IMG/VR virus record: IMGVR_UViG_3300047546_002006
Coordinates: 1 to 64,000 of that record
Length of the DNA stretch: 64,000 nt
Reading direction: 5' to 3' (one strand)
Source of the DNA: a virus
A program made the translations under genes and the position numbers. Positions 86-14,493 of the stretch are shown piece after piece (position 1 is the first letter of the stretch; the number at the start of each line of letters is the position of its first letter). The notes below the pieces were generated by a model. It was not told the DNA's origin. It was given only the letters and a program-made list of their open reading frames with translations, and did no database searches.

Positions 86-352
86 TCACTGTGGGGTCAC
101 ACCCTCCAGCTCGGCGGCGATGGCGAGAAGCGCGGCGCGTGTTTCTTCCCGCTCTTGTTCGACTACTCGCTCGCAACAGTTACCACAAAAGAACTCTGGG
201 TCGTCAATGAGCGGCACCACCTGATCCGCAGCAGCACGCAGGGCGGCGGCGATTTGCTGGCGGCGGCGATCCTCATGGCTTTTGCAGTTGACGGGACTGA
301 GTTGCCAAGCGGCGTCCCAAACAGCTTGCGCGGCGGGAGAGAGGTCAGCCAT
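86..352 (-). CDS. hypothetical cyanophage protein, paralog of 345-590
   Basis: LSPAAQAV...IAAALRAAADQVVP...LLAIAAELEG shared with neighbour; ATG overlaps upstream stop. Confidence 0.75.
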   Translation of the reverse strand: MADLSPAAQAVWDAAWQLSPVNCKSHEDRRRQQIAAALRAAADQVVPLIDDPEFFCGNCCERVVEQEREETRAALLAIAAELEGVTPQ

Positions 353-503
353 CAGCACCCTCCAGCTCGGCGGCAATAGCGAGGAGTTGATGGCGGGTTA
401 CGCGGCGCTGGATCTCATAAGCCCTGGGTGCGCCAGGCACAAAATCACTGTTTTGTTCTTCCGGCACCACCTGATCCGCAGCAGCACGCAGGGCGGCGGC
501 GAT
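212..503. repeat. 42-bp exact direct repeat (212-253 and 462-503)
   Basis: cggcaccacctgatccgcagcagcacgcagggcggcggcgat twice. Confidence 0.95.
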
Positions 504-590
504 GCTGGGGCAATCACGCAGGTCAGGCACAGCACGGAACGCATCCAGCACCGCCTGCGCGGCGGGACTTAGTGAGGTGGGGTTAGTCAT
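345..590 (-). CDS. hypothetical cyanophage protein, paralog of 86-352
   Basis: same three motifs; GC-rich. Confidence 0.75.
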   Translation of the reverse strand: MTNPTSLSPAAQAVLDAFRAVPDLRDCPSIAAALRAAADQVVPEEQNSDFVPGAPRAYEIQRRVTRHQLLAIAAELEGADG

Positions 591-635
591 GATTAAAAAA
601 ACAAACGGGCGTAACCTTCATTGATCCATTGCTCC

Positions 636-1286
636 TCAGCAGATTCCTTCTGCTGATTGAAAGACAGCTTCTCCAATGATTGGGAATTGTTCGCAGAAGA
701 TTTCTTTGATGTGTTCTGCAATGACTCGGTGTTCGAGTTGGGTTCCGTTGTCACAACGTAGTTGTAGGTAATGTATCCACGAACGGAGTGTTCCGTTCAT
801 GTATAGCTTAGTAGGAGTTGCAAGCGGCAGGATGCTACGTGCGCATTCCTTGGCAACACCACTGCTAACCATCTCACGATAAAGGTGTTCAGCATCTTCA
901 AACAGCTGACTGATGCGACGGTAGTAATGGCTGATGTGCTCTGGATCTAGATCATCAATAGAGTTCTGTCTGTTCTTGGTATCTTGCCGACGCAGATGCG
1001 GCATGACACAAGAGCCTAGCTCACTGGTGTCTGCATAACGCTGGCTAAATTCCTGAAAGCTGAAAGAACGATGACGTAATATCTGAGCTGAGATAGCACG
1101 TGTTGTACTGATTTCAATACACATACCAGCCATCTCATATGGACTCCAGTGTTTATGCGTAATGAGATAACGCAATAACTTTGGAGCTGTATCCATGTTG
1201 GATTGATTCTTTGGTGCAGAAACTCGCGCCATATAGGTGATGAGTTCCTCTGCGTTAGGTGTTGCCCAGACCAAGGATACTGTCAT
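636..1286 (-). CDS. thyX: FAD-dependent thymidylate synthase
   Basis: HWSPYE, QILRHRSFSFQEFSQRY, AKECARSILP, TQLEHR motifs. Confidence 0.97.
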   Translation of the reverse strand: MTVSLVWATPNAEELITYMARVSAPKNQSNMDTAPKLLRYLITHKHWSPYEMAGMCIEISTTRAISAQILRHRSFSFQEFSQRYADTSELGSCVMPHLRRQDTKNRQNSIDDLDPEHISHYYRRISQLFEDAEHLYREMVSSGVAKECARSILPLATPTKLYMNGTLRSWIHYLQLRCDNGTQLEHRVIAEHIKEIFCEQFPIIGEAVFQSAEGIC

Positions 1287-1438
1287 TTGGATTCTTCAGT
1301 TTTGTTTTGAGATTCAATGCCAGCTTTATAGCCAAAGCTATAGGCAGTACTTACCAGGTAACGAACAACCTCATTTTGTTGTTTAAGTTTGTAATCTTTT
1401 GCCATAGCAATAATTTCATTGAAAGTTGTTTCGTCCAT
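1283..1438 (-). CDS. hypothetical protein (51 aa, below ORF-track cutoff)
   Basis: MDETTFNEII...; fills gap, ATGA overlap with thyX. Confidence 0.6.
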   Translation of the reverse strand: MDETTFNEIIAMAKDYKLKQQNEVVRYLVSTAYSFGYKAGIESQNKTEESK

Positions 1439-1456
1439 GGTTTGAAATAAAATCGG

Positions 1457-1753
1457 TTATTCCCCTGGAACATTAACAGAGGAGGTCAGCTTGGCAAGTT
1501 CATCAATAGGACAGATGCGATGTCTCGCATGAACCATTGGAGACTTGAGGTGGTCCCATTGAATAACAAGAAATTTAGTGCGTGCACCATTCTTGTTTAA
1601 TTTGGTTTCATAACCAAGGACTGTGCCATAACGCTGACTGCGATTACGTTTAGCAATCTCCAATGATTCTGGCCTAACGGCCATTAATGCATGTGCCTTG
1701 GGACGCTCTGCGACACGATCACCAATTTGAAAACTGTATTGTTTCTTGGTCAT
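1457..1753 (-). CDS. hypothetical protein, SH3/KOW-like start
   Basis: FQIGDRV...RYGTV; start trimmed to MTKKQ. Confidence 0.7.
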   Translation of the reverse strand: MTKKQYSFQIGDRVAERPKAHALMAVRPESLEIAKRNRSQRYGTVLGYETKLNKNGARTKFLVIQWDHLKSPMVHARHRICPIDELAKLTSSVNVPGE

Positions 1754-2097
1754 TAAACATGCCTCCAAGCTTTGCGGTTGACAATGCGTGATGTGTAAGA
1801 TGTACTGATTCCATATTTGTCTGCAATTGATTTCAGGGTTTGCCCTTCTTCAAATAGCAGACGCATCATATGGATATCAGCTTCTGTAAATACAGAAGAT
1901 CCATGGGATGAACCACGAGCAATTTTACCTGGCCTTGGTTTGCCAAACGCAGGGCCAGGCTTTGGTTTTTCATACTGCTCAACAGTACGAAACTTAGCGC
2001 CACAATCAAGACACCGACAATAACGCTTGGTAAATTTGTCGTAGTGATCAGTGCATGTAACGCGTGTGTTCGTGCTGTTGCATTCACGACACCTCAT
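1753..2097 (-). CDS. Zn-ribbon (NrdR/Ogr-like) plus C-terminal HTH protein
   Basis: MRCRECNS..TRV, RCLDCGAKFRTVE; LKSIADKYGISTSYTSRIVNRKAWRHV. Confidence 0.75.
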   Translation of the reverse strand: MRCRECNSTNTRVTCTDHYDKFTKRYCRCLDCGAKFRTVEQYEKPKPGPAFGKPRPGKIARGSSHGSSVFTEADIHMMRLLFEEGQTLKSIADKYGISTSYTSRIVNRKAWRHV

Positions 2098-2411
2098 GCA
2101 AAATCACCTGTTCTAATTTTGTCTAGTTGTAAACGATCAAGAAGATTAACAGTAGCTTCAATACCAGAAATTTTAATAAGGTCAATGATAAGTTCTTTAC
2201 CCATCATTGGAATGTCATAGTAATTGTCAAGGATGATTTCTGCTTTCTCAAAACCATCAGGCTCGCCTGTTAATTTGGTTAATACATCAGATGTCATGTT
2301 GTCTACAAAGTATTCAACAATAGCTGTCTTGACAATGTCCCAAGTGTGAGATGGAATGTGTTGAACGATTTGATCAACAAGATCAAGATCGATAAGTTCA
2401 GTAGTTGACAT
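2094..2411 (-). CDS. hypothetical protein
   Basis: ORF in operon, ATGA overlap. Confidence 0.7.
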   Translation of the reverse strand: MSTTELIDLDLVDQIVQHIPSHTWDIVKTAIVEYFVDNMTSDVLTKLTGEPDGFEKAEIILDNYYDIPMMGKELIIDLIKISGIEATVNLLDRLQLDKIRTGDFA

Positions 2412-2439
2412 AAAGAAAGGCCCCTGGAAAACCAGGGGC
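2412..2439 (-). terminator. terminator-like hairpin abutting start codon
   Basis: GCCCCTGG-TTTT-CCAGGGGC-CTTTCTTT-ATG. Confidence 0.55.
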
Positions 2440-2456
2440 GTAGTTGCGTTCAGAGA

Positions 2457-2819
2457 TTAGGCAGGCTGTGCGTCTGTGTCCACGATGCTGCTCAAAACGC
2501 CAGCATCTTGTAACTTTTGAAGCATACCAACCATGATTGAGGCATGGGTCTGAGTCTGCTCCATGAAGTGCTTGGCACGTTCAGCAGACATGGTATGGAC
2601 GTTGCCATTGGGCTCCACGTAACGCCAGCTGCCATCAGGCTGAGGCTCGCCTTGGAGGGCAAGGCGCTCTGAGTTGTGGACGTACCTAAACTCGATGTTG
2701 TGGTAGTCCTGGAGGTTATCAGTGCCAGTCCATGTAGCACCTACGTTGTAACGATTGTCATCGTCAGCGTAGGCATGGAACTGAGGAATGATGTGCTTGA
2801 GTGCAGCAAAGATTGACAT
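2457..2819 (-). CDS. hypothetical protein
   Basis: ORF with CAACT-type leader. Confidence 0.75.
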   Translation of the reverse strand: MSIFAALKHIIPQFHAYADDDNRYNVGATWTGTDNLQDYHNIEFRYVHNSERLALQGEPQPDGSWRYVEPNGNVHTMSAERAKHFMEQTQTHASIMVGMLQKLQDAGVLSSIVDTDAQPA

Positions 2820-2839
2820 GATGTTGAAGTTGAGTGTGT

Positions 2840-2925
2840 TGGTAGGGACAGAGAGACTTGAACTCTCACAGCCAATGGCTTACGGATTTTAAGTCCGTTG
2901 CGTCTACCGATTCCGCCATGTCCCC
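2840..2925 (-). tRNA. trnL: tRNA-Leu(UAA), intronless, CCA encoded
   Basis: GGGGACA/TGTCCCT acceptor, CT-TAA-AA anticodon loop, long variable arm, GTTCAAGTC T-loop, ACCA end. Confidence 0.96.
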
Positions 2926-2942
2926 ATGAGTCACATCTTAAC

Positions 2943-3917
2943 TCATAAACCAAGATACGATCTGATCTGTTGTTGTAAAAATTGAGATGCCGTTGGAAGA
3001 TTCTCTTTAACTTTTTGAATGCCGGCTGCCTGTGCTGTGCCTGTTAAAAAGTTCATTGCAATAGGTTCATCATGATACATTTGTACACGACGAACATTGG
3101 TTGGATCAACAATTGCTTTTGTACCACGAATTTCTGCAATAGGTTGTGCAACCCAATCAACTCTTCCAACTTTTGGATTGATTCGAACATTAAAACGTTC
3201 GGTATCATTGACAGGAATGTTGCCTTCATACTTAAGTACATCAGGGCGTTGTTGGGAAATAATGCGATAGTCAGGATCAACATCAAGTAATTCAAATGAT
3301 GGATTGTATTGAGTTGGTGATTGTCTCGTAGTCAAATCAAAAGCACGATAACCCCCTGGAGATTGATAAAGCCTGAGTGTTGATTGTGGATTTTGTGATA
3401 GATAATTTTGAATGCGATCTTCAACGTCACCTAAATGACGTATTGTTGCATTGCGTTCAGCATGATAAGGACCAGCAACATCCCAATCCATCATTGGTGT
3501 GTCTTTAAATCCCACAAACTCTTGGATTACACCTGGAGAAGATGGAGTGGGACGTGCTTGATTGGATGGAATTTTATGTTGGCGTTTGTAATAAACACCT
3601 GGCTCTAACACATAATGTGTTGTTGGGTATTTAAGTGTTTCAGAAAGATTAGATGTAATGCCAATAGATCCAAGGATCTTATCTAGTTCATAAGCACCAG
3701 AATCAATTTGTTGTTGTAATGCTCTTTGAGCAAATTGCTGTGACTTATGTAGAGCTTGGGTTAGATCACCATTGTTTTGACGATTAACAATTGTTTCAGG
3801 ATCAATTACAAAACGTTGTTTTGACTGTGCAAATAACTCATCAAACAACTGTTGTTTTGTTACATTAGATGGACCTGGATTAACAATCCTGCCGATACTT
3901 TTTAAAACGCCGTTCAT
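2943..3917 (-). CDS. protein with C-terminal AEP (primase-polymerase superfamily)-like domain
   Basis: MMDWD, LRLYQSPGGYRAF, LDVDPDY, FNVRINPK, terminal HD. Confidence 0.5.
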   Translation of the reverse strand: MNGVLKSIGRIVNPGPSNVTKQQLFDELFAQSKQRFVIDPETIVNRQNNGDLTQALHKSQQFAQRALQQQIDSGAYELDKILGSIGITSNLSETLKYPTTHYVLEPGVYYKRQHKIPSNQARPTPSSPGVIQEFVGFKDTPMMDWDVAGPYHAERNATIRHLGDVEDRIQNYLSQNPQSTLRLYQSPGGYRAFDLTTRQSPTQYNPSFELLDVDPDYRIISQQRPDVLKYEGNIPVNDTERFNVRINPKVGRVDWVAQPIAEIRGTKAIVDPTNVRRVQMYHDEPIAMNFLTGTAQAAGIQKVKENLPTASQFLQQQIRSYLGL

Positions 3918-4049
3918 ATCTATTTAATGCTTTGTGTTTTAAATGTAGGCAGCGATTGTACTCATCTTGTTTCTGCTGGTAAGCAAACTGCCAACAAAGT
4001 TTTTCTAAAACCTGGAACAAAGAATATGATTGTTCCAAAAGATCTTTTG

Positions 4050-4262
4050 TCATTTTACTTCAGTTGAATTGATTTCTACTGACGTTGAACGCCAGGTGTG
4101 GTCATGAGGTAATGGCTCAGTGCCATAACTCCATGTATCGTAGTCATCCTCATTGCGAGGATCATCTTCAATCAAGATGTACTGTGGTGAATTGTCATGA
4201 ATGTACTCACCAATGTTGGCCATGGCCATGGCAAGTAGTTGTTCGTCAGTGAAGTCAGACAT
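4050..4262 (-). CDS. hypothetical acidic protein
   Basis: start trimmed to MSDFTD after hairpin. Confidence 0.65.
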   Translation of the reverse strand: MSDFTDEQLLAMAMANIGEYIHDNSPQYILIEDDPRNEDDYDTWSYGTEPLPHDHTWRSTSVEINSTEVK

Positions 4263-4305
4263 AAAGAAATGGACCTGCCCCTTAACGAGGATAGGACAGG
4301 TCCAT
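4263..4305 (-). terminator. terminator-like hairpin abutting start codon
   Basis: ATGGACCTGTCC...GGGCAGGTCCAT-TTCTTT-ATG. Confidence 0.55.
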
Positions 4306-4312
4306 GTTGGCT

Positions 4313-6088
4313 TCAACGTTCTGATTTTAGTTGCTCATCACGAATGCGCAATGCGTTGCTAAACACTTGCGTGTAAATGTTACGTTCTGTATCGCTGAGT
4401 CTGGTGTTGGCAAAACCAACAATCTGCTCAACAGACATGACACCCATGTTGACCTTGAGCTGAATGGTAAACGTAGGCTTGCCATTCAACATACCAAGGA
4501 CAATGAAGTGTTGCTTCTTACGTACACCTTCGGCATACGATGCAGCATTGCCAACGCAATTGCGTACGGCCTGGCCCCATTGCGCAAGTTGATGTGTATC
4601 AATGGGCTGGAAGAATGACCAGTTGTCATCTTGATAAGTAACCTTGACAGGTTGTGGGAATAGATCTTGTGGTAGTGAGTGATTTGGATTCTGAATTTTC
4701 CATGATTCTGCTTGCACATGATCATGGAATTCTGTGATGCGCCAACGACGTGGCGGATCAATTGTCTTGCCGTTATCAAAGATACGAGCAAGCATTGAGA
4801 ATGTGTCGTTGAGTTCATTGAATCGGAACAGCCAATGGTCAGTGTCCTCATCCCAATCCCAACGACGACGCCTTTCTGATGCAGCAGTAGATTCTGCTAC
4901 TTTGTCTGTATAGTATTTGTTCATGATCTGAAACAATGATGCAACAGGCATGTGCTCACGCAACCATGCTTTGCACAGAGGAACGTCTGGCTCATAGAGA
5001 CGACGGATGCCAAGCAGTACATCAAGATGATTCTGATAGTAATCAATTGGAGTATCAGGCCAGATGCGATTGATTGTACTAATTGCATCTGCCAGTTGAT
5101 AGATGCGTTGTATTGGTACAACAATACTTTTACGTGTACAGTTGTCTGGATCATGGAATCGTTGCGTGGCTAAATCGCATTGCAATTGAATCCACTTACG
5201 AAAGAATGGTGTACTTAGAATCTTTTTGCTATCACAAATAGAACGGATACCAACATAACCATAGCCAATGTCGTTTGTATGACATACATCAATTAATTCA
5301 AAGAATGTATCAGATGTCAGCTGCCAATTGTCAAGTGTCATCTGATATTTCTCTTGGCAGATATCAAAGTACTTATCTTTGTATTTACCAGAGATACGTT
5401 CAAACAATACTTTGAATAGATCATTACCAATACGTAGACGCTCAAAGCTATTGACTGAATCATCCCATGTAGGTACAGATGCAAATAGCTGTTTGTCAAA
5501 TCGACGCACAGCTTCGCCCATCAGTCTGCCCTTCTGGCCGTAGCTATTGCACATAGACCATGGACGATCACGCCATCTCTCTGATTGTTGAATAAATTCC
5601 TTGGTGACATATACAGTCTTAATAAGGTAATCGCTGCGACCAACAGTTTCACGCAAGAATGTAGTGTCTGACACAATACTGTGCATCAACATCTTGCGTG
5701 TTGTTGCAGTGTCCTTGTAACAATGTGTATAGGCGTAGATGTATTCAGATTCCTTGCCCTTAGGCGGCAGCCATGCTGCTACCCATAAACCTTCCCAGTG
5801 ATAGATCACTGCATGTGTGATGTATTCAACATCGGGTATGGTGCCAACAGGCATACGGAATTCATGGAAACGCTCTGGTGCAGGATTAGCATTGATGTCA
5901 TCAATTGCACCTTCATACAATGAAGAACGCACCACATCGTTTGGTATCAGGACTGGTGGCAGTCCAACAGGATACTTAGGTTTCTTAGTCTTAGATGTTT
6001 GAGCTTTCTCTTGCCGTGCCAACTTCTTAAGCGTTGGATCGTAGGCAAGCAGCTCAGTTTGCAGGTTAGTAGGGAGTTGGAATTGCAT
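4313..6088 (-). CDS. PcfJ-like domain protein
   Basis: C-terminal LAQWGQAVRNCVG..Y, PTFTIQL, EQIVGFAN. Confidence 0.75.
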   Translation of the reverse strand: MQFQLPTNLQTELLAYDPTLKKLARQEKAQTSKTKKPKYPVGLPPVLIPNDVVRSSLYEGAIDDINANPAPERFHEFRMPVGTIPDVEYITHAVIYHWEGLWVAAWLPPKGKESEYIYAYTHCYKDTATTRKMLMHSIVSDTTFLRETVGRSDYLIKTVYVTKEFIQQSERWRDRPWSMCNSYGQKGRLMGEAVRRFDKQLFASVPTWDDSVNSFERLRIGNDLFKVLFERISGKYKDKYFDICQEKYQMTLDNWQLTSDTFFELIDVCHTNDIGYGYVGIRSICDSKKILSTPFFRKWIQLQCDLATQRFHDPDNCTRKSIVVPIQRIYQLADAISTINRIWPDTPIDYYQNHLDVLLGIRRLYEPDVPLCKAWLREHMPVASLFQIMNKYYTDKVAESTAASERRRRWDWDEDTDHWLFRFNELNDTFSMLARIFDNGKTIDPPRRWRITEFHDHVQAESWKIQNPNHSLPQDLFPQPVKVTYQDDNWSFFQPIDTHQLAQWGQAVRNCVGNAASYAEGVRKKQHFIVLGMLNGKPTFTIQLKVNMGVMSVEQIVGFANTRLSDTERNIYTQVFSNALRIRDEQLKSER

Positions 6089-6116
6089 GGTAGGTTCAGG
6101 GTTTAGTTCAGGGTAG

Positions 6117-6145
6117 TGAGCAGTTTAACGTCATGCTCAGGACGG
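6117..6145 (-). ncRNA. H-type pseudoknot leader element, copy 1
   Basis: cCGTC-c-TGAGCA-t-GACG-ttaaac-TGCTCA; 28/29 identical to 10080-10108. Confidence 0.65.
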
Positions 6146-6149
6146 ATGA

Positions 6150-6410
6150 TCAATCTAAATACCAGTCGGAGGTATCGACGAGTTGCCAGTCAAGATCGAG
6201 GTGAGCAAGATACTCGCAGAACCCATCTTCATCAACAGGGATTGATTCTTCTGGATCCAGAGTAAAACTTGCTGAACACAATGCTGGAGCGTACTCAGCA
6301 GGGTCTTCATGGCTGCCTTTATAGATGCAGCGCATGTCATTAACCACTGCTTCAACTGTGACATTGTTGTTCTTGATGGTGGTGGATTCGACAGCAAGGA
6401 TGTAAGTCAT
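6150..6410 (-). CDS. hypothetical protein
   Basis: start trimmed to MTYILAV, TGATG overlap. Confidence 0.7.
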   Translation of the reverse strand: MTYILAVESTTIKNNNVTVEAVVNDMRCIYKGSHEDPAEYAPALCSASFTLDPEESIPVDEDGFCEYLAHLDLDWQLVDTSDWYLD

Positions 6411-6595
6411 CAGTGGTTCTCTACGTACTGGTACTTCTTGGAAATGATGCAACGATACTTGTTCCAATGACGAGCAGTTTCATACTCGTCAATGAATCGT
6501 TCTTTGTTGCATACGTTTTGTTCGGCACGCTTCATTGCACAATGTGCAAGGTTAATGCGGTCGAACAAAGTAAGTTCATCAATTAATGCAGACAT
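6410..6595 (-). CDS. hypothetical protein
   Basis: CAACTCAACTC-ATG leader. Confidence 0.7.
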   Translation of the reverse strand: MSALIDELTLFDRINLAHCAMKRAEQNVCNKERFIDEYETARHWNKYRCIISKKYQYVENH

Positions 6596-6619
6596 GAGTT
6601 GAGTTGCAATGGGAATTTG

Positions 6620-6679
6620 GCCTGGGACTTACACTGTATCTTTCTGTGCTATGTGCACAGCGATTACAGATGCCCAGGC
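6620..6679 (-). ncRNA. long interrupted intergenic hairpin
   Basis: GCCTGGG..CTGT..CTGTGC/GCACAG..ACAG..CCCAGGC just after stop codon. Confidence 0.5.
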
Positions 6680-6680
6680 A

Positions 6681-6878
6681 TTAGAACAGTCTGATGTTGC
6701 GCTTGCTAATACCAGTGCCTGGGATACTGATCGATCCAAGGACACCAGACTTGCGTGCATTCAACGTTAGTTGGAATGGACCAAGTTGAAATGATTTGGT
6801 GTAGGACTTAACACCATGTTCAGTGATGTTAAATCCTGCAATTGTTTTGTCAAAGTTTAATGGAGATTTCTGAGTCAT
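6681..6878 (-). CDS. DUF4236-like small protein
   Basis: KSFQLGPFQLTLN..SISIPGTGIS. Confidence 0.55.
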   Translation of the reverse strand: MTQKSPLNFDKTIAGFNITEHGVKSYTKSFQLGPFQLTLNARKSGVLGSISIPGTGISKRNIRLF

Positions 6879-7200
6879 GTTTGAGTTTTGTAATGAGTTG
6901 TTCAATTTCAAGTTCAGTACCAGTAATAGATACTGTCACTGATACTTTCTTAGGTTTAGGTCTACGTGCATTACGCAGATCACGTACAGAAGAATTCCTT
7001 TGGAACTTAGTGCCGCATACAGAATTTGATTGAAATAATCTGCAGCACTCTTCTAATTCCTGATCTGCGCCCCACTGGGCAGCAGTAATTGCAATAAGCT
7101 CAATTAGTTCATAATGTTTGACTTTGGTGTCATACCAAGTATTTAACCAATTCTTTATAAGTTCAGGCGATGGTTTAATTGGGTGCTGTTGATTAATCAT
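6850..7200 (-). CDS. hypothetical cyanophage protein
   Basis: HPIKPSPEL..AAQWGADQELEECC..LRNARRPKP. Confidence 0.65.
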   Translation of the reverse strand: MINQQHPIKPSPELIKNWLNTWYDTKVKHYELIELIAITAAQWGADQELEECCRLFQSNSVCGTKFQRNSSVRDLRNARRPKPKKVSVTVSITGTELEIEQLITKLKHDSEISIKL

Positions 7201-7495
7201 TGTCATTGAATGCTTCAGCGAGTACAAACTTGAGATGGAAATACTCTTGATCTTTATCTGTCGCTGGATGGTAACGAGCATGGAACCCACCACTACCAAT
7301 AGATTCAAGCTTGATTGCTTCACGTAATAAATGTGAAGCAGCAGCTTTCAATCGTGGTATGGATGGAAGTTCCAGTCCATTACCTCTAGTTGTTTGCCAG
7401 CGCCAGTCAAGAGCTGTCATTGCAGCATGGACTTTAATGAAGTCAAATGCTTCAATAACTTCCATGATTAATTCTTCATGAACATTAGATGTCAT
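7193..7495 (-). CDS. conserved phage hypothetical protein
   Basis: FDFIKVHAAMTALDWRW..SGGF. Confidence 0.7.
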   Translation of the reverse strand: MTSNVHEELIMEVIEAFDFIKVHAAMTALDWRWQTTRGNGLELPSIPRLKAAASHLLREAIKLESIGSGGFHARYHPATDKDQEYFHLKFVLAEAFNDND

Positions 7496-7695
7496 TGGAG
7501 TTCATCAGGCATGAGGTACTGAACATCATCATCTTCCATATTTGTCATTACAAATTTCTCTCCATTGGGGGCAATGAAGCCCCCAATGAATCCAACGCCA
7601 TGTTTATCTGCTGATTCCTTCATGCGTGCAACAAGTTGCATAGCAGCAAGACGTTGGTTGTCAATGGAATCAGGAATGCGTGGTTTGTCGGACAT
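7492..7695 (-). CDS. hypothetical protein
   Basis: ORF in operon, ATGA overlap. Confidence 0.7.
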   Translation of the reverse strand: MSDKPRIPDSIDNQRLAAMQLVARMKESADKHGVGFIGGFIAPNGEKFVMTNMEDDDVQYLMPDELQ

Positions 7696-7806
7696 TTGAT
7701 GTGTGATTTGTAGAGTGAATTGAAGTTGGGTCTGAGACCTGGTCAGTCTACCCCGGATGTCAAGTCCAGGGTAGAGCTACAGATTCTCTTAATGTTTCGT
7801 AGTGAT

Positions 7807-8097
7807 TTACTTGTGCATCTCCTGGTGCTGTTGCCATGCAGCAGTGTGCATCTCATCAGCAGTCATGGGTGGTTCAGTGATTTCATCATCTGAATAATCA
7901 ACATCTAATTCATTGTCAAGCATGGGGATAATCTCATCGGTTAACAATGAGTACATGCTTGGTGTTAGATGTTGATCCATCTCATGACGTTTATCCTCAC
8001 GAGCAATGATGTCTTTGAGGATTGTCAATGCTTGTTGTACATGGACATACTCATTCTTAGTCCATGTAATCTCTGGGTACTTCTGTTGTTGATTCAT
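7807..8097 (-). CDS. hypothetical protein
   Basis: start trimmed to MNQQQ. Confidence 0.7.
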   Translation of the reverse strand: MNQQQKYPEITWTKNEYVHVQQALTILKDIIAREDKRHEMDQHLTPSMYSLLTDEIIPMLDNELDVDYSDDEITEPPMTADEMHTAAWQQHQEMHK

Positions 8098-8154
8098 GGT
8101 TAGTGTGTGGAATGAATGGTATGTATCTAATAGAAATATAAGTGTGCTCCTGGT

Positions 8155-8330
8155 ACTCCTTTCGGGGGTGCAGGGGGTAGGCCAACGAAGCTGTGGTGAT
8201 TTGCTGTGATGGTTAATAACCACACATAGTTAAACACTGTGTTTACCACACTTCGTGTCTGGCATTACCCTGTGCATTCTCTATTCGCGAATAGCGAATA
8301 ATGCTACCGTTATATAAGCTGAGCTTATAT
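8155..8330 (+). ncRNA. highly structured non-coding element (ncRNA or ssDNA structure)
   Basis: long imperfect stem 8169-8199/8243-8276 with inner hairpins; G-T pairs only on + strand; palindromes at 8281-8294 and 8312-8330. Confidence 0.45.
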
Positions 8331-8335
8331 GTTGG

Positions 8336-8611
8336 TTACATGTTACCTTGCGGTTTCTCTGGATCAAGCATGATCCAACCGGTGTATCGAAACGCTGTAC
8401 GATCCACGCGTATTAATCCGTATTCTTCCAGACGTCTTAATGCATGTAGATAGTCTCTAATCCTGGTGGATTGCATCGGAAGCTTTGGTACAAAACACGG
8501 TGTGTTTCTATGTTTCTTCCTGTGATTCAGGAAGTAGAACCAAAGATTCCGTTGGTTGATTGATAGCTTGATCTTTGGGTCAAGCTTGGGCAAATCCAGT
8601 TGGCTTGGCAC
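8336..8611 (-). CDS. winged-helix DNA-binding protein
   Basis: LSINQRNLW..YLHALRRLEEYGLIRVDR; GTG start assumed. Confidence 0.55.
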   Translation of the reverse strand: MPSQLDLPKLDPKIKLSINQRNLWFYFLNHRKKHRNTPCFVPKLPMQSTRIRDYLHALRRLEEYGLIRVDRTAFRYTGWIMLDPEKPQGNM

Positions 8612-9074
8612 GGAGTTCTTTGGGTTGTGTGTTAGCAGTAGTACGGGCGCTCCTGCGGGTACGGCTTGGCGTATCCGTTGGAGAAGGTAACAGACCATGC
8701 GTCCCAACCGAGGTTGTCACGCTGTGGTCCGTAGGTTTCTGTTGCTTCTGCTTCAAGCTTGATTGCTTCACGGATGGCTTGCTTCTTGGAGAAGACACAG
8801 ACCGTTTTGACGGGCCATCCTTGCTGGTAGTACCAACCTCCTTCTTCTGGTCCACCGTACCTGCTGTCGCATTCGTAGACACAAATGGTGGTTGGTTCTT
8901 GGTCTTCAAAGGTACAGTGCAGGTTGTACCTTGAGATCCAACGGCGGGCTGGTGCAGTGTCAATAGACATTTGATGAAATCTCCAATGAGTGTGATTGTG
9001 ATGCTGATGCAGACAATGCATAGGATGATTGGATCTTCATCCCATACATTCTTGGTTTCAGTCATGGTAGTCAT
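8580..9074 (-). CDS. possible overprinted membrane-anchored protein
   Basis: hydrophobic N-terminus fills 8970-9058 gap; basic low-complexity tail overlaps 8632-8970. Confidence 0.4.
   Translation of the reverse strand: MTTMTETKNVWDEDPIILCIVCISITITLIGDFIKCLLTLHQPAVGSQGTTCTVPLKTKNQPPFVSTNATAGTVDQKKEVGTTSKDGPSKRSVSSPRSKPSVKQSSLKQKQQKPTDHSVTTSVGTHGLLPSPTDTPSRTRRSARTTANTQPKELRAKPTGFAQA
8632..8970 (-). CDS. hypothetical protein
   Basis: VYECDSRYGGPEEGGWYY..YPQERPYYC. Confidence 0.75.
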   Translation of the reverse strand: MSIDTAPARRWISRYNLHCTFEDQEPTTICVYECDSRYGGPEEGGWYYQQGWPVKTVCVFSKKQAIREAIKLEAEATETYGPQRDNLGWDAWSVTFSNGYAKPYPQERPYYC

Positions 9075-9261
9075 GAGCATACCTCTCGTTGTAGTGGTCA
9101 CATGCGTAGCGTTCTTCATTTGATATCTCATCATTGAAGACGCCTGTCCAACCGTCTTGTTCTGCCTCACGCATGGCTTCTTCTAATTCGTATACACGAT
9201 CAGCCATGGCATCGAGGTAATTAGCATTGCGTTGTTCGTCAATGAAGTCAGAGTCTCTCAT
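9058..9261 (-). CDS. hypothetical acidic protein
   Basis: CAACTCAACC-ATG leader. Confidence 0.7.
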   Translation of the reverse strand: MRDSDFIDEQRNANYLDAMADRVYELEEAMREAEQDGWTGVFNDEISNEERYACDHYNERYAHDYHD

Positions 9262-9281
9262 GGTTGAGTTGCAATGGTGTA

Positions 9282-9310
9282 GTCTGCGTTTATAGGATGC
9301 GCAGCCCCCT
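9282..9310 (-). ncRNA. pseudoknot leader element, divergent copy
   Basis: AGGG-gg-CTGCG-ca-TCCT-ataaa-CGCAG. Confidence 0.4.
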
Positions 9311-9342
9311 GATAATATAAATAATTATTGGTTAACAAATAA

Positions 9343-9906
9343 ATGCCTGTGCCAGTTACTAAATTTCAAGATTTGCTAAATGCGTTTACCAAAAATCCTG
9401 AATACTTTACGCCTGGTTACACACAGGGATCTCCATTGTATAAAGGTGCACCTGGTCAGATGTTGAACGCATTTAAGTCCTTTGTCCCCGGACAAGGCGG
9501 CATGTTAACACGCGCAGATGAAACAGGTATGTTTGGCATTTCGCCTTTGAGTGGACAAATGACATTAAAATCTAGTACCGGCTGGGGCTTTAATGCTAAT
9601 CCTGTAACTAAATCAATAGGGTTTGATAAAGGTAGTTTTGCAGTTGGCGGTTCTTTCAATAAGTATTCACCTAGTGCATACATAAATTATGGTCCAGTTA
9701 ATATACAAGGTTCTTTAGGCTTTGATCCAAGTATTCAAATGAATATTAATACTAATGCCAGTAAAGACTTTATTGAACCAACAATGATGCAAGAGTTTCT
9801 TGCTGGTGATACAGTGCCACAACAATCAGATCCAACTGCAAGAGAAGAGTTGGAACAACAAATTAATCAATATCGCAATTCAAATCCAACCTGGTACAGA
9901 CCATAG
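9343..9906 (+). CDS. hypothetical protein, opposite strand to the early operon
   Basis: 187-aa ORF with AT-rich leader. Confidence 0.7.
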   Translation: MPVPVTKFQDLLNAFTKNPEYFTPGYTQGSPLYKGAPGQMLNAFKSFVPGQGGMLTRADETGMFGISPLSGQMTLKSSTGWGFNANPVTKSIGFDKGSFAVGGSFNKYSPSAYINYGPVNIQGSLGFDPSIQMNINTNASKDFIEPTMMQEFLAGDTVPQQSDPTAREELEQQINQYRNSNPTWYRP

Positions 9907-10058
9907 GATTGATTGCAACGATAAATCTGTTGTTGTTGTGTGCAATAATAAATACCATTTTGGGATTGATAAAGAAAATGCATGCCATCACTTAATATGA
10001 TTCCACCAACACCAAGGTATTGCTGTAAGCATGCAAATGTTGTGCAAATAAAGTTCAT
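9867..10058 (-). CDS. hypothetical protein
   Basis: start trimmed to MNFICT after pseudoknot. Confidence 0.5.
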   Translation of the reverse strand: MNFICTTFACLQQYLGVGGIILSDGMHFLYQSQNGIYYCTQQQQIYRCNQSYGLYQVGFELRY

Positions 10059-10079
10059 AGTTAGACCAAATAAAAACAA

Positions 10080-10108
10080 TGAGCAGTTTAACGTCATACT
10101 CAGGACGG
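10080..10108 (-). ncRNA. H-type pseudoknot leader element, copy 2
   Basis: single difference from copy 1 turns C-G into U-G in stem 2. Confidence 0.65.
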
Positions 10109-10157
10109 CAATAGTACCACCCCAGAAAAGGGTGGTATCACTCCATGAAGGGGTAGT

Positions 10158-10595
10158 TCATACAGTGATGTGACGCCAGGCAATGCCACGTGCAATGTTG
10201 CCAATGGCACAGCCTGTCACACTGTATGCTTTACCGATCTCTTCATATGCTTTCGTCTTACTTGAATACTTACTCATGATGTCTGGATCGTTGACCATCA
10301 TCTTGATGTCACGAACATCAGACGGAGTAAGTTTTGGTGTGTAGCCAGTGTAACGAACATGTGTAGTACCCACTCCACCCACAGGCTTAAGCCTGGGTCC
10401 ATCTCCAGTTACTTGCTTTGTCACCACTGCAGCCGGTGCTGCTGGTGGCGTAATGGAGAGGGGAGTGGTTTTAAGTGGGAACCCAAGTGTCACTGATGTG
10501 CCGTCTTTGACAACGGAGATCGTGACCTTGCCATCACGCGTGATGACAGATACGTGATCTGGGTGTTGAACGTCGAGTTGGCTGAGTGCTTCCAT
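10158..10595 (-). CDS. C-terminal HTH DNA-binding protein
   Basis: KLTPSDVRDIK..EIGKAYSVTGCAIGNIARGIAWRHI. Confidence 0.7.
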   Translation of the reverse strand: MEALSQLDVQHPDHVSVITRDGKVTISVVKDGTSVTLGFPLKTTPLSITPPAAPAAVVTKQVTGDGPRLKPVGGVGTTHVRYTGYTPKLTPSDVRDIKMMVNDPDIMSKYSSKTKAYEEIGKAYSVTGCAIGNIARGIAWRHITV

Positions 10596-10692
10596 TGAGA
10601 TGAGATGGTCTGAGTTGATGGATGCAAAGCAAGAATAGCTGGTACGTACAAGGATGCAAGTACCAGCCGTAGCGTTTGGCTGACGTAGGACA

Positions 10693-10920
10693 CTAGCCGT
10701 GTGGTATGAAGTCAGAGTCGTTGAGGAGCTGATGAACTGACAAGCAGTCTTCAGCAATCTCCTCCTTGCTACAACCAACCCAGTCGTCAGTCTGGTCCTC
10801 AATCACCTCGCAGCCAATGTCTTCGAGTTGATCTGAGAACTTAGACCATGTTGGTGCGTTGCCCCAGACATGGGCATAACGACCGGATGCGTCAGCGACT
10901 AACGCGATGTAGTTGTTCAT
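10693..10920 (-). CDS. hypothetical protein
   Basis: start trimmed to MNNYIAL. Confidence 0.7.
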   Translation of the reverse strand: MNNYIALVADASGRYAHVWGNAPTWSKFSDQLEDIGCEVIEDQTDDWVGCSKEEIAEDCLSVHQLLNDSDFIPHG

Positions 10921-11098
10921 GGTCAGGTGAGGATTGAGGTGATGTGATATCAATGCCAAGCATGGCACCGATAGTGATTGAACTGATGGCAATGGCAATG
11001 ACACCAATGAATAGATTCCACCGTCGAGTCTTATGAGACTCACCGTAAGAATCAAGGTGCATGAACCTGCCCTTGCCAAGAGGAACGATGTGTTTCAT
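10892..11098 (-). CDS. small membrane protein
   Basis: MKHIVPLG..LFIGVIAIAISSITIGAMLGI. Confidence 0.6.
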   Translation of the reverse strand: MKHIVPLGKGRFMHLDSYGESHKTRRWNLFIGVIAIAISSITIGAMLGIDITSPQSSPDHEQLHRVSR

Positions 11099-11099
11099 A

Positions 11100-11363
11100 T
11101 CAGAGTGTGTTGAGAATGTATCGAACGCAGACCAAAGGTTCTGGTTCGTAGTTCGGGGGCAGTTCTTCATAACAGAACCATTGCCCCTTGATGTCAATGT
11201 CCATGCATTCTGTAAACGATGCTAAATGAAAAGCATTTGGACCCTTGGTGCACCAAACGATATAAATAACGTTAGGTTCACACAATAAATAATAATCATC
11301 TTCCTTAATGTTGAACCGCTTGAGTGCGTCTTGTATCTCTTGATGATCTGTTGTCAATGCCAT
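11100..11363 (-). CDS. hypothetical protein, paralog of 11443-11805
   Basis: DHQEI..FNIKEDDYY..IKGQW..RY. Confidence 0.7.
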   Translation of the reverse strand: MALTTDHQEIQDALKRFNIKEDDYYLLCEPNVIYIVWCTKGPNAFHLASFTECMDIDIKGQWFCYEELPPNYEPEPLVCVRYILNTL

Positions 11364-11387
11364 GGTTGAGTTGAGATGTTGGGTGGA

Positions 11388-11445
11388 TGCAGGATGTTGA
11401 GTCCTGCAGAAACCCATCATTGCTGATGGGAATGTGCAGAAATCA
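11388..11445 (-). ncRNA. family A bistable intergenic element
   Basis: TGATTTCTGCA..hairpin..TGCAGGACTCAacaTCCTGCA. Confidence 0.7.
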
Positions 11446-11805
11446 GCTAAACGGACCTTCAGGATCACCAATAGAACCTGTTCCAGTGCCATCAATAAAA
11501 TAACGGCATTTAACGTGCTTCTGTCTTTTCAGCCAATCAATAATTTCTTGATAAATCAAAAAATCTGATTCGTCATAATCCATATGACACCACTTGCCTT
11601 TAATCTCTAAATAAACATTGTCAATTTCACAAGGTAAATCTTGGTAATAATTAAAAACGTCTGGTTGTCCAATCCAATACATATGTGCTGAAATCTGTTT
11701 GCCAGAATTTTCAGTCTTCACAGCAAAATAAACATCATCAATAGTGATGTTCATAATTTCAAAAACCCGTTTAATGTCTTGATAATCAAAAGTAAGTTCC
11801 ATCAT
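11443..11805 (-). CDS. hypothetical protein, paralog of 11100-11363
   Basis: DYQDI..MNITIDDVY..IKGKW..RY. Confidence 0.7.
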   Translation of the reverse strand: MMELTFDYQDIKRVFEIMNITIDDVYFAVKTENSGKQISAHMYWIGQPDVFNYYQDLPCEIDNVYLEIKGKWCHMDYDESDFLIYQEIIDWLKRQKHVKCRYFIDGTGTGSIGDPEGPFS

Positions 11806-11829
11806 GGTGTAGATAATTAAGTAATGACA

Positions 11830-11890
11830 GCAGGATATTGAGTCCTGCAAGAAAGGCCCTGGTAACCCAAGGCCCTTGATGCAGAAGTCA
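11830..11890 (-). ncRNA. family A bistable intergenic element
   Basis: TGACTTCTGCA..hairpin..TGCAGGACTCAataTCCTGC. Confidence 0.7.
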
Positions 11891-12289
11891 GAATGGAATT
11901 TCTTCCAGTGTGGGCACAGCTGGTGCTGATGCCATAGCCACTGGTATTGCAGAAGCAGGAGGCAGATATTGCGGTGCGGCACCAATGATAGCCCTCACAT
12001 TCGTGAGGTTGATCTGTGGGTAACGCAATGCAATAAGCTGACCATCCTTGATGTAATGGCTGCGGATCGTATTGATACGAACCTCCCACTGCGTGAGGAT
12101 AAGTTCTTGTCCTACGACCAGGGTGCCATTACGAAATGCTGTAAGCAAACCATTGGCATTATTGAATTTGATGCGGCAACCATTACCAGACTTGTCGTTG
12201 ACAGCCATGGTAACTGCAAGGAACTCGCTACCTTCATGGGTAGCAACTTCCAAGTAGCAGATGTTGCCGACAATCGCTTGAGTAAACAT
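11888..12289 (-). CDS. ssb: single-stranded DNA-binding protein (OB fold)
   Basis: IVGNI, VTMAVN, Pro/Ala linker, C-terminal EEIPF (SSB-Ct). Confidence 0.7.
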   Translation of the reverse strand: MFTQAIVGNICYLEVATHEGSEFLAVTMAVNDKSGNGCRIKFNNANGLLTAFRNGTLVVGQELILTQWEVRINTIRSHYIKDGQLIALRYPQINLTNVRAIIGAAPQYLPPASAIPVAMASAPAVPTLEEIPF

Positions 12290-12312
12290 GTTAGTAATGA
12301 GTTGAATTGAGG

Positions 12313-12391
12313 TACAGGATATTGAGTCCTGCAGAAAACCCACCGTCCGATACGAATTCGTATCAAACGGAAGGGTTAAGTGCAAGAGTCA
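12313..12391 (-). ncRNA. family A bistable intergenic element with 16-bp palindrome in apical stem
   Basis: TGACTCTTGCA..GATACGAATTCGTATC..TGCAGGACTCAataTCCTGTA. Confidence 0.7.
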
Positions 12392-12628
12392 GTCTGCGTT
12401 ACGGTACTCCCACTTGAGTAGTTCTCGGTTGAGATCTACCTTCCGTTGGAGCACCACGCAGAATGGCATCAGGTCTTGAAACTCACGCATGCCGTCCTGC
12501 CATTGGAAGAACAAGTCGAGTGCAGCTTGACGCTGGCTCTCAAGTTCTGTGTCAATGACAGGGGCATCCCTCCTGGCAAGCAGGCGGGCATCTTGCGTGA
12601 GCAGATATTCAACAGCTTTAGGAGTCAT
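12389..12628 (-). CDS. hypothetical protein
   Basis: ORF between two family A elements. Confidence 0.75.
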   Translation of the reverse strand: MTPKAVEYLLTQDARLLARRDAPVIDTELESQRQAALDLFFQWQDGMREFQDLMPFCVVLQRKVDLNRELLKWEYRNAD

Positions 12629-12665
12629 GGTTGATTCCAGTTGGTGTGAATTGAGCTGAGTTTGA

Positions 12666-12717
12666 TGCAGACTTGAGGTCTGCAGAGAAGGCCCGTAGGC
12701 CCTCAGTGCAAACGTCA
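12666..12717 (-). ncRNA. family A bistable intergenic element
   Basis: TGACGTTTGCA..hairpin..TGCAGACCTCAaGTCTGCA. Confidence 0.7.
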
Positions 12718-12903
12718 GATATTAATCTTGGGTGTAATAACGAATGCCATATCGTTCGGCATGACGAGTGCCGCTGCCCGAACCCTGAGTTCGTTCAGCT
12801 TCTCGGATGCCTGTGCCTTGGTAGGCACCTTGGCATTCTCTACTGCCGATGCGGCAAGCCGCATGATATTGGCAGTGTTCTTCCTGATGTTGAGTGCAGT
12901 CAT
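12715..12903 (-). CDS. hypothetical protein
   Basis: start trimmed to MTALNI. Confidence 0.7.
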   Translation of the reverse strand: MTALNIRKNTANIMRLAASAVENAKVPTKAQASEKLNELRVRAAALVMPNDMAFVITPKINI

Positions 12904-12926
12904 AGTATGGTGTTGAGTTGAGTAAA

Positions 12927-12984
12927 TGCCACGGGATTGTGGCAATAGTTGTGTGGGGGATTCGATCCCCCGGCTCACGCCTGG
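12927..12984 (-). ncRNA. family B T-loop/TATTGCC element
   Basis: GGC-GTGA-GCC, GGGGGA-TCGAA-TCCCCC, ACTATT-GCCAC..GTGGC. Confidence 0.55.
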
Positions 12985-13179
12985 TCAAATGACCATCACA
13001 ACATCGTCGGCTTCCATCATCTCCTGGAAGGACATGATCTGCACGTCATGCGTGCCTTGGATGCCGTCGTTAAGTTCAGGTGAGTTGAGTTCGAAGTCGT
13101 ATTGTGCAGCTTCGATAAGCGCTTCTTCCCAAAGGAAGGAAACGCCATGCTGCACACCATTGATCACGATGTAATACAT
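12985..13179 (-). CDS. hypothetical protein
   Basis: start trimmed to MYYIVI. Confidence 0.7.
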   Translation of the reverse strand: MYYIVINGVQHGVSFLWEEALIEAAQYDFELNSPELNDGIQGTHDVQIMSFQEMMEADDVVMVI

Positions 13180-13200
13180 GAGTCGAGTTGTAAGTTGAAC

Positions 13201-13257
13201 GCAGACTTGAGGTCTGCAGTAACCCCTGGCTTTCACCAGGGGAAAGTGCAAACGTCA
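13201..13257 (-). ncRNA. family A bistable intergenic element
   Basis: TGACGTTTGCA..CCCCTGG/CCAGGGG..TGCAGACCTCAaGTCTGC. Confidence 0.7.
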
Positions 13258-13440
13258 GTTAGTCTTGTAACCATTATCTGCACACCAGTCCATATGGATC
13301 TGATGCGCAGCTTTAGGCCATGCGTGATCACGGCATTGCTTGGCAGCAGCTTGGTCCAGCATGTGTGCACCAATCTGGCTAGCAATGCCTGCACCGATGG
13401 CAGTAACAATGACAAGGATAAAGAACTGATTCTTGGTCAT
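13255..13440 (-). CDS. small membrane-anchored protein
   Basis: N-terminal TM; QCRDHAWP..HMDWCADNGY. Confidence 0.7.
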   Translation of the reverse strand: MTKNQFFILVIVTAIGAGIASQIGAHMLDQAAAKQCRDHAWPKAAHQIHMDWCADNGYKTN

Positions 13441-13458
13441 AAGTTGAGTTGAATGTAA

Positions 13459-13521
13459 GCCACACTCAGTGTGTGGCAATAACTGGGCCAGGGTTTGCAC
13501 CTGGCCTCCCGCTTTAACGGA
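13459..13521 (-). ncRNA. family B T-loop/TATTGCC element
   Basis: GGCCAGG-TGCAAAC-CCTGGCC-cagttatt-GCCACAC..GTGTGGC. Confidence 0.6.
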
Positions 13522-13767
13522 TCAGCTTGCAAGCTTCAGCACCTGAATGCTGAAATTAGGAAACAGATGAAGGCGATAATCGCAGTCACGCTTACCGCAC
13601 TCACATGGATTGGAATCCCAATCCTCCTGTTCCTTAACAATGGCTTCTGCTTTAAGCAATGCCATTGCATTCTCCGCACTCTGACGAGTGGGATAAAGAG
13701 TGTCCTGGTGAATCCAACGATAATAAGAATCGTCTGGAGTAGAAACCTGGACGGCAAAGAGTTCCAC
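13522..13767 (-). CDS. hypothetical protein
   Basis: GTG start with AGGAG SD; CECxxxxC. Confidence 0.7.
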   Translation of the reverse strand: MELFAVQVSTPDDSYYRWIHQDTLYPTRQSAENAMALLKAEAIVKEQEDWDSNPCECGKRDCDYRLHLFPNFSIQVLKLAS

Positions 13768-13788
13768 AAGGAATCTCCTGTTGTGCGG

Positions 13789-13851
13789 TGCCTATCTCCG
13801 CTGGAGGCAATAACCAGAGCCAGGCATTGCACCTGGCATGGGAGCTATCAC
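13789..13851 (-). ncRNA. family B T-loop/TATTGCC element
   Basis: GCCAGG-TGCAATG-CCTGGC-tctggttatt-GCCT..AGGC. Confidence 0.6.
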
Positions 13852-14031
13852 TCACCTGGCCTGGAGTTGACGCACGAACTTGCGTGCGTTCTCCACTGAC
13901 ATTGTGGTACTGCAGTCATAACCCCTCTGGCCCTTGCGGACCAGCTTGGTGATGCGTGCCATACCTACTTCCTTGTTAACAACAAAGCAGTACGTGGCCT
14001 GCTTGGTTGCAACAGTGCAGAAAATGTCCAT
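13852..14031 (-). CDS. first gene of early operon, hypothetical (59 aa, not in ORF track)
   Basis: MDIFCTVATKQATY...RQLQAR; CA-rich leader. Confidence 0.65.
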   Translation of the reverse strand: MDIFCTVATKQATYCFVVNKEVGMARITKLVRKGQRGYDCSTTMSVENARKFVRQLQAR

Positions 14032-14060
14032 GATGAATCGAATGCGATGGAGTTGAATGC

Positions 14061-14086
14061 GCTACGTTTAACGCCCAGCTTGGCGT
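14061..14086 (-). ncRNA. pseudoknot leader element, covarying copy
   Basis: ACGCC-aaGCTG-GGCGT-taaacg-TAGC. Confidence 0.45.
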
Positions 14087-14126
14087 GATTAATCCCGAGT
14101 TGTCAGGTCGGAATTAACAAACTGTA

Positions 14127-14135
14127 ATTATGGCA
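14127..14135 (-). promoter_or_regulatory. candidate extended -10 early promoter
   Basis: TG-c-CATAAT about 40 nt upstream of the first pseudoknot. Confidence 0.35.
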
Positions 14136-14185
14136 ACTGTTCTGTATGAACAAACGTGCGGCGTGGGGCGCGACACTCCCATGTG

Positions 14186-14205
14186 CGATACGAATTCGTA
14201 TCAAA
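14186..14205. repeat. 20-bp exact repeat of 12348-12367 containing a perfect 16-bp palindrome
   Basis: cGATACGAATTCGTATCaaa. Confidence 0.9.
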
Positions 14206-14493
14206 AAACAGTATAAAAGTAGGTAGAAGTACCTAAAATCCTCACTAAATTGTCGCTCGCTCCTCCGGGCGAACGCAGTGAGCATTCCTTAGCCTTCTCT
14301 TAACGAACGAAGTGAGTTCTAACCCCCACTTACTCTTACCCATCACACATTTCTTTTTTTCTTCCCACATTTCGTGTCGCGTAGGTGTGTGGAGAAGCCC
14401 CAGAAATTTTATTTTCCTTTTTAGGCCCTATACGAGGGCCGGTTTTTAGCAAAAAGTGTCGGCATATCAAGGGTTTTGCCCTAATTTTTAGAC

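Follow-up and report, generated by a model that had tools for sequence, protein, structure and literature searches.

Why should a phage carry the same small RNA fold at the entrance to several of its genes, and what could such a fold do there? The question is raised by IMGVR_UViG_3300047546_002006, a 79,218-bp IMG/VR virus record that is rated complete and belongs to an uncultivated freshwater phage. The window analyzed here is the first 64 kb of that record (positions 1 to 64,000). Among cultured phages the sole relative at the DNA level is Synechococcus phage S-EIVl, and the relationship is distant. A sequence-only reading of the window had picked out compact H-type pseudoknots with an A-rich loop 3 in four 5' leaders and had treated them as versions of one element. 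The four sites are in fact three motif types rather than four copies of one. The most widespread of them, a 28-nucleotide (nt) pseudoknot here called type A, is a confirmed RNA structure on the mRNA strand with both stems covarying in its relatives, and what the sequence-only reading had said of fold and leader position holds for it. Its function is a separate matter, and the reading that we prefer, a protein-independent roadblock or insulator acting in the 5' to 3' direction, is one to which we would give about an even chance.

Fold and covariation of the type A pseudoknot

The element is seen in the window as a 29-nt repeat, TGAGCAGTTTAACGTCATRCTCAGGACGG, at positions 6117-6145 and 10080-10108, for which the expected number in shuffled sequences is 0 and whose flanks are unrelated at the two places. 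The claim that these copies differ by one base that preserves pairing was borne out: G6134 corresponds to A10097 on the plus strand, which changes a C-G pair of stem 2 to U.G. Read on the gene strand, the repeat is CGUC-C-UGAGYA-U-GACG-UUAAAC-UGCUCA. A third canonical copy with stem 2 UAGUCA/UGACUA lies outside the window at genome positions 77750-77777, and was found with a descriptor scan and with a covariance model (R1), whose match spans 77746-77781. Over the genome model R1 scores only these three type A copies and nothing else. The descriptor scan, when run loosely, gives about 12 matches per shuffled genome and by itself cannot validate variants.

About 312 canonical copies were collected from 200 phage loci, with no more than 8 copies per locus. 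Their consensus is NNNC-C-UNNNYA-U-GNNN-UUAAAC-URNNNA, which comprises a 4-base-pair (bp) stem 1 with an invariant C-G closing pair, a single C as loop 1, a stem 2 of 6 bp, one U as a bridge and the loop 3 UUAAAC. When stem 1 and loop 3 were fixed in the search and stem 2 was left free, 54 of the 71 distinct pairs formed at least five of the six base pairs; permuted partners did so in 34 cases on average and 44 at most. The exchanges include UGGACA/UGUCCA, UUGAUA/UGUCAG, UAAGCA/UGCUUA and UGGCCA/UGGCCA, and the compensatory changes in this 6-bp Watson-Crick helix fall at pairs 2-5. The reverse search, with stem 2 fixed and stem 1 free, gave 29 of 46 distinct pairs with all four base pairs formed (permuted partners: mean 3.8, maximum 10), among them GGAC/GUCC, ACAC/GUGU, CGCC/GGCG and UAUC/GAUA. 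The middle pairs of stem 1 covary, and the loop-closing pair is C-G in all 46 distinct stem-1 pairs and in 69 of the 70 rows of an alignment termed A2. In that alignment 135 cells are changed on both sides of a pair as compared to 33.5 in shuffles, and the paired fraction collapses to 23-43% when the register is slid; since its rows were chosen for pairing, the searches with one stem free are the cleaner test of covariation. Stem 2 holds 52 G.U cells and only 11 A.C cells, which assigns the fold to the gene-sense strand and thus to RNA.

The stems vary and the loops do not. The loop closed by stem 1 reads C-U-N-N-N-Y-A-U, with loop 1 being C in 316 of 329 copies and position 2 being U in 306. 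Loop 3 is UUAAAC in 275 of the 329, and the base that follows it is U in 319. The variants TAAAAC, ATAAAC and CTAAAC, together with AAAAAC in the Mycobacterium phage Labelle, show that the variation in loop 3 is confined to its first two positions.

Placement, downstream units and distribution

Type A copies are placed with some precision between genes, and their orientation is always that of the downstream gene. Stem 1 begins 5 nt past an upstream stop codon in 79 cases and 4 nt past it in 6; a gap of 0-3 nt occurs in none, and there is a tail above 5 nt. When a stop codon occupies the A site, about 5 nt of the mRNA downstream are covered by the ribosome. The minimum of 5 nt, taken with this geometry, suggests that the knot sits as near to the stop codon as it can without being unwound by the terminating ribosome. 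On the other side the ATG most often follows the knot at 19-22 or at 26-29 nt, a spacing that puts the knot just beyond the mRNA covered by a 30S subunit during initiation. In 65% of cases no structure is predicted for the 24 nt that follow the knot, as compared to 26% of random 24-mers, and these 24 nt contain 12% G rather than 22%.

The downstream open reading frames (ORFs; n=221) code for proteins of functionally unrelated families: PcfJ-like (40), GP88 (20), SSB (14), DUF5895 (13) and head scaffold (12), and the remainder includes many small ORFs. Some of the downstream units are not translated at all. In four independent contexts a type A knot ends 4-9 nt ahead of a tRNA gene on the same strand, namely tRNA-Cys, tRNA-Asp (twice) and tRNA-Gly in the phage loci L256:4626-4733, L261:9542-9652, L173:3301-3404 and L248:5428-5535. 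A Hammerhead_II-like sequence begins 2 nt past a knot in L059:7306-7398 (32.9 bits, below the gathering score of 37), and a tmRNA gene lies about 120 nt past the knot in L062. Non-coding neighbours of this kind speak against a role in the initiation of translation alone. In L025 a hammerhead-like core was read by eye behind the knot, but Rfam did not bear it out. Inspection of the family loci for a frameshift or readthrough signal revealed no slippery heptamers ahead of the stops, and that candidate was set aside.

Both copies in the window are on the minus strand. The first, CGUC-C-UGAGCA-U-GACG-UUAAAC-UGCUCA at 6117..6144, scores 49.6 bits with model R1 (E 2.5e-11). Its stem 1 begins 5 nt past the TGA stop (6150..6152, minus strand) of an upstream ORF of 86 amino acids (aa). 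It is followed by a 28-nt leader (6089..6116, minus strand) that is C/A-rich, G-poor and without a Shine-Dalgarno sequence and that ends at the ATG of a 591-aa PcfJ-like gene (4313..6088, minus strand), one of the 40 counted above and a member of the family found most commonly behind the type A knot. The second copy (10080..10107; 45.2 bits), in which pair 5 of stem 2 is U.G, is preceded directly by a 9-bp hairpin, ACCACCC...GGGUGGU, at 10114..10139 on the minus strand. The ATG of a 63-aa ORF without a family match (9867..10058, minus strand) lies 21 nt past this knot. A similar pair of hairpin and knot precedes homologous small genes in three other phage loci (L005, L016 and L032). Contigs assembled from one metatranscriptome and three probable DNA runs were also compared. 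Among those of runs X9, X10 and X15, contigs from other phages of the same lake samples match only the knot island at 6115-6147 and diverge on both sides, and depth over the bin that holds 6115-6147 rises 5-fold, showing that the island is common to co-occurring phages. The RNA run covers neither knot, and no 5' ends can be read from the contigs.

The type A element is found far beyond this genome. An exact 27-mer occurs in 65 IMG/VR loci and in 7 bacterial genomes or metagenome-assembled genomes (MAGs), mostly of Clostridia; the carriers are Hornefia, Anaerovorax, Ruminiclostridium, Eubacteriales and three MAGs, one from Bacilli, one from Bacteroidetes and one unclassified from a lake. BLAST revealed close variants, most of them without annotation, in cultured phages of Microcystis, Nostoc, Synechococcus (S-EIVl and S-H35), Lactobacillus, Moorella, Mycobacterium, Arthrobacter (Molivia), Paracoccus, Bacillus, Geobacillus (D6E), Streptococcus and Vibrio, as well as in crAss-like phages. 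In S-EIVl the knot is 5 nt past a TAG stop and 23 nt ahead of an ATG, and in the Lactobacillus phage phiEF-1.1 it stands ahead of the scaffold gene. The Vibrio phage case is uncertain, as the knot lies there among small ORFs annotated in the opposite direction. Several of these cultured phages and their hosts form pairs in which the role of the knot is directly testable.

Types B and C and the surrounding operon

The other two sites were only partly described by the sequence-only reading. The site at 14061 had been taken for a copy with a covariant stem 1. The CGCC/GGCG stem and the UUAAAC are present, but the geometry is not that of type A, having a 2-nt loop 1 and a 4-bp stem 2, and the site, CGCC-AA-GCUG-GGCG-UUAAACG-UAGC at 14061..14085 on the minus strand, is not matched by model R1. 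We refer to it as type B. It stands 29 nt ahead of the ATG at 14031. Its core forms a conserved island with unrelated flanks in two other phage contigs (L275 and L276), in one of which U.G replaces C-G in stem 1; there is no compensatory change among the matches in these two contigs.

The site given as 9282-9310, with the same topology, is indeed a conserved knot with both stems covarying, although it represents a separate type C and not a type A copy. It reads AGGG-GG-CUGCG-CA-UCCU-AUAAA-CGCAG at 9284..9310 on the minus strand, 22 nt ahead of the ATG at 9261, and is present in at least 13 other contigs, where the unconstrained GGGGG and CAU stay fixed. Its stem 2 varies by compensation (CCGCG/CGCGG, AUGCG/CGCAU, ACGCG/CGCGU and UUGCG/CGCAA), as does its stem 1 (AGUG/UACU twice and GCCG/UGGC). 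The 67-aa ORF behind it (9058..9261, minus strand) is 70% identical to the gene behind a type A knot in L070. As orthologous genes follow type C here and type A there, the two types look interchangeable. The four sites had been placed about 20-30 nt before an ATG, and the measured distances, 28, 21, 29 and 22 nt for the sites at 6117, 10080, 14061 and 9284, agree.

All of these sites lie in a series of small minus-strand genes at positions 1-14,300. Most of the genes are separated by spacers of 60-110 nt, and their leaders are C/A-rich, G-poor and without a Shine-Dalgarno sequence. The proposal that some of the knots mark transcript starts did not find support: a scan for promoters and terminators gave counts at or below the level of shuffles, with fewer promoter matches than in shuffles, and a 60-aa ORF lies upstream of the type B site. 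A 187-aa ORF without a family match (9343-9906, plus strand) is opposed to the operon. To the eye, the AT-rich sequence that separates it from the type C knot resembles a promoter, but the scan for promoters did not detect it.

Other features of the window were recorded. A second family of structured spacers is found on the minus strand at 11390-11415, 11831-11856 and 12315-12340 and in the spacers 12629-12724 and 13180-13257. Its layout is UGAC-N-UUGCA, then a GC-rich hairpin, then UGCAG(G)AC-CUCAAxx-GUCUGC, and it stands ahead of four or five consecutive genes of the same operon, each with a C/A-rich leader after it. The early operon also holds a tRNA gene of the phage (2843-2925, minus strand, 62.4 bits), which has no knot ahead of it. 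A 42-nt exact direct repeat occurs at 212-253 and 462-503, 250 nt apart, in a GC-richer stretch. The presumed tail-fibre genes at 40000-41600 and 54285-56033 contain long collagen-like Gly-X-Y repeats and a second set of imperfect repeats of 75-85 nt.

Resemblance to coremin and possible functions

Which known RNA does the type A knot resemble? The search of Rfam that had been proposed for the knots was run and gave no match over them, either at the gathering score or with E values up to 10, to pistol, preQ1, hammerhead or any other family. A text search with the loop-3 string led to coremin (xrRNA-C), an Xrn1-resistant RNA with the sequence GUCCGAAGACGUUAAACUAC that is carried by Beet necrotic yellow vein virus, cucumoviruses and other RNA viruses of eukaryotes (Dilweg et al. 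2019, PMC6546385; 2023, PMC10520033). Its hairpin hp1 has 3-5 bp with a closing pair of 5' pyrimidine and 3' purine, C-G or U-A. The loop is YGAD or YGNNAD, loops of 7-8 nt being tolerated in some contexts, and loop 1 is a single base that can be C or U only. In the spacer UUAAACUAC the residues A15-A20 are essential and U13U14 are tolerant, with AAA, C and U needed, and Xrn1 is stalled about 1 nt upstream of hp1 (PMC10520033, PMC6546385, PMC10321173). Coremin also blocks scanning ribosomes and drives frameshifting, including in a screen done in E. coli (PMC10520033, PMC10321173). A pseudoknot has been proposed for it but the fold is still unsolved, with a canonical pseudoknot in a Watson-Crick variant, xrRNA-WCC, known from Sanxia picorna-like virus 5 and from screen hits (PMC10321173).

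The phage knot has a short hairpin with a pyrimidine-purine closing pair, commonly CGUC/GACG where coremin has GUC/GAC. In both elements the first loop base is C, the loop ends in A-D (A-U in the phages), the middle stem pairs are exchangeable and loops of 6-8 nt are tolerated. Both have UUAAACU, in which only the two leading U's tolerate change, according to the phage variants on the one hand and coremin mutagenesis on the other. Each invariant position of the phage knot, that is, the closing C-G, the C of loop 1, the last base of the loop (U) and the A before it, and UUAAACU, falls on a feature of coremin. The phage stem 2, however, is a 6-bp Watson-Crick helix that has absorbed the equivalents of A20 and C21, and the phage copies lie in 5' leaders and intergenic spacers of DNA phages rather than in the 3' untranslated regions of RNA viruses. 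With xrRNA-WCC the knot shares a canonical antiparallel stem 2 formed by loop bases with the bases after AAA and an unchangeable 1-nt loop 1. It differs in that stem 2 of xrRNA-WCC has 3 bp, its loop 1 is G, it has no bridging base and it still requires the downstream hairpin hp2 for Xrn1 resistance. Judged from its sequence, the phage element is best called coremin-like and not a member of coremin. In the papers searched for coremin or exoribonuclease-resistant RNAs (xrRNAs) in connection with phages, RNase J or RNase E, no account of the motif in phages was found.

The bases that are invariant in the phages are those that are essential in coremin, from which we infer a compact and mechanically stiff fold; their coincidence with an Xrn1-resistant RNA gives indirect support to a roadblock against 5' exonucleases, as the sequence-only reading had suggested among other roles. 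The adenines of loop 3 presumably dock in the minor groove of stem 1, as has been proposed for xrRNA-WCC (PMC10321173). The knot would stay folded between a ribosome terminating 5 nt upstream and one initiating about 20 nt downstream, and could stop RNase J-type exonucleases, 5'-end-dependent scanning by RNase E and also stray ribosomes. The RNA unit behind it, be it a cistron, a tRNA or a ribozyme, may thereby gain its own protected 5' boundary within a multi-gene transcript, and types B and C may do the same job with other sequences.

Two better known groups of elements offer a comparison. The pseudoknot in the gene 32 leader of phages T4 and T2 serves a single gene, in the autoregulation of gp32. 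It too is compact and H-type, with 1 nt in loop 1, and it borders the 5' edge of a phage mRNA leader without structure. SSB genes are among the targets of the knot described here; the two knots have no sequence similarity, however, and the targets of the type A knot are many and unrelated. The 5' stabilizers of Gram-positive mRNAs (ermC, aprE and SP82) are simple hairpins or bound ribosomes. As the proposed roadblock would, they obstruct 5'-end-dependent decay by a structure close to the 5' end, but no conserved knot common to several phyla is found among them.

Several observations weigh against a roadblock. Protection of a 5' end is less obviously useful ahead of a tRNA or a hammerhead than ahead of a cistron. 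Some matches are in phages of Vibrio, which to our knowledge has no RNase J. The phage loop has 8 nt, and its position 2 is U and not the G of YGAD or YGNNAD. The knot also has no counterpart of hp2, as the 24 nt past it are mostly unstructured, while the published forms of coremin, including the Watson-Crick variant, need hp2 past the spacer for Xrn1 stalling, and ordinary frameshifter pseudoknots do not stall Xrn1 (PMC10321173). It may be conjectured that the 6-bp stem 2 stands in for a short stem 2 with a stacked hp2.

Could the knot act in translation instead, either as a standby site or enhancer on the platform side of the 30S subunit for leaders that have no Shine-Dalgarno sequence, or as an insulator against ribosomes sliding in from the upstream gene? 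The tight distance to the ATG (19-29 nt) fits such a role, as do the G-poor leaders of this phage, the behaviour of coremin towards ribosomes and the 5-nt minimum past the stop codon, which from established geometry would suit the ribosome entry channel. The same knot, however, is found 4-9 nt ahead of tRNA genes and 2 nt ahead of the hammerhead-like ribozyme, where nothing is translated, and also ahead of leaders with a strong Shine-Dalgarno sequence, for example in L014 and L036. Enhancement of translation as the sole role, one of the original suggestions, is weakened by the non-coding contexts, and we regard a translation element as rather doubtful. An operator for an RNA-binding protein, whether autoregulated in the manner of T4 gp32 or a conserved host factor, would account for a knot followed by an unstructured leader and for SSB being among the commonest downstream genes (14/221). 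It is improbable given that the identical sequence occurs in phages of several bacterial phyla without obvious common proteins, that the target genes are many and unrelated, and that freely covarying stems with fixed loops are what is expected of a self-contained fold.

Location at gene boundaries, beside tRNAs and a Hammerhead_II-like sequence, and the different structured modules in other spacers of the operon would also suit a processing signal, that is, a self-cleaving RNA or a site at which the multi-gene transcript is cut by RNase P, RNase E or RNase III. At 28 nt the knot is far below the size of any known natural self-cleaving class and it offers no long duplex to RNase III, which makes this quite improbable. 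The ligand-binding RNA of the sequence-only reading, which would be a small riboswitch in the size class of preQ1-I or SAM-II, agrees with the compact H-type fold, with a loop 3 rich in A and with the strong conservation of the loop bases ahead of genes. No expression platform is present, however: 19-29 nt separate the knot from the ATG, and it does not reach into the ribosome-binding site or a terminator. The downstream genes have no common pathway, and Rfam gave no match even at the loosest threshold used, so that a riboswitch is very unlikely. There is least to be said for a site acting in DNA, be it a promoter, a palindromic operator or a hairpin formed by single-stranded DNA. The inverted repeat TGAGCA-N11-TGCTCA is what one would look for, but its half-sites change by compensation rather than being fixed, a second and crossing stem covaries as well, the G.U pairs fit the sense strand only and the orientation always follows the downstream gene; the chance of such a site is slight in the extreme.

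A wider claim can be built on the roadblock, and we hold it to be possible at somewhat less than even chance. The 28-nt knot would then be the first RNA of the prokaryotic world that resists exoribonucleases and ribosomes, self-sufficient and common, by descent or by convergence, to DNA phages of at least five bacterial phyla and to RNA viruses of plants, fungi and insects, and its Watson-Crick stem 2 would reveal the fold of coremin. If the roadblock is real, the covariation data of type A would constrain that unsolved fold, and the decay of bacterial RNA by RNase J and by RNase E scanning would be tied to the field of xrRNAs, which so far is confined to viruses of eukaryotes. The knot would also be a very small portable part for stabilizing or insulating genes in synthetic operons. 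For the phages themselves it would mean that the stability and the boundaries of single cistrons in long transcripts are set by a protein-free RNA of 28 nt, a layer of control over phage genes that at present goes unannotated.

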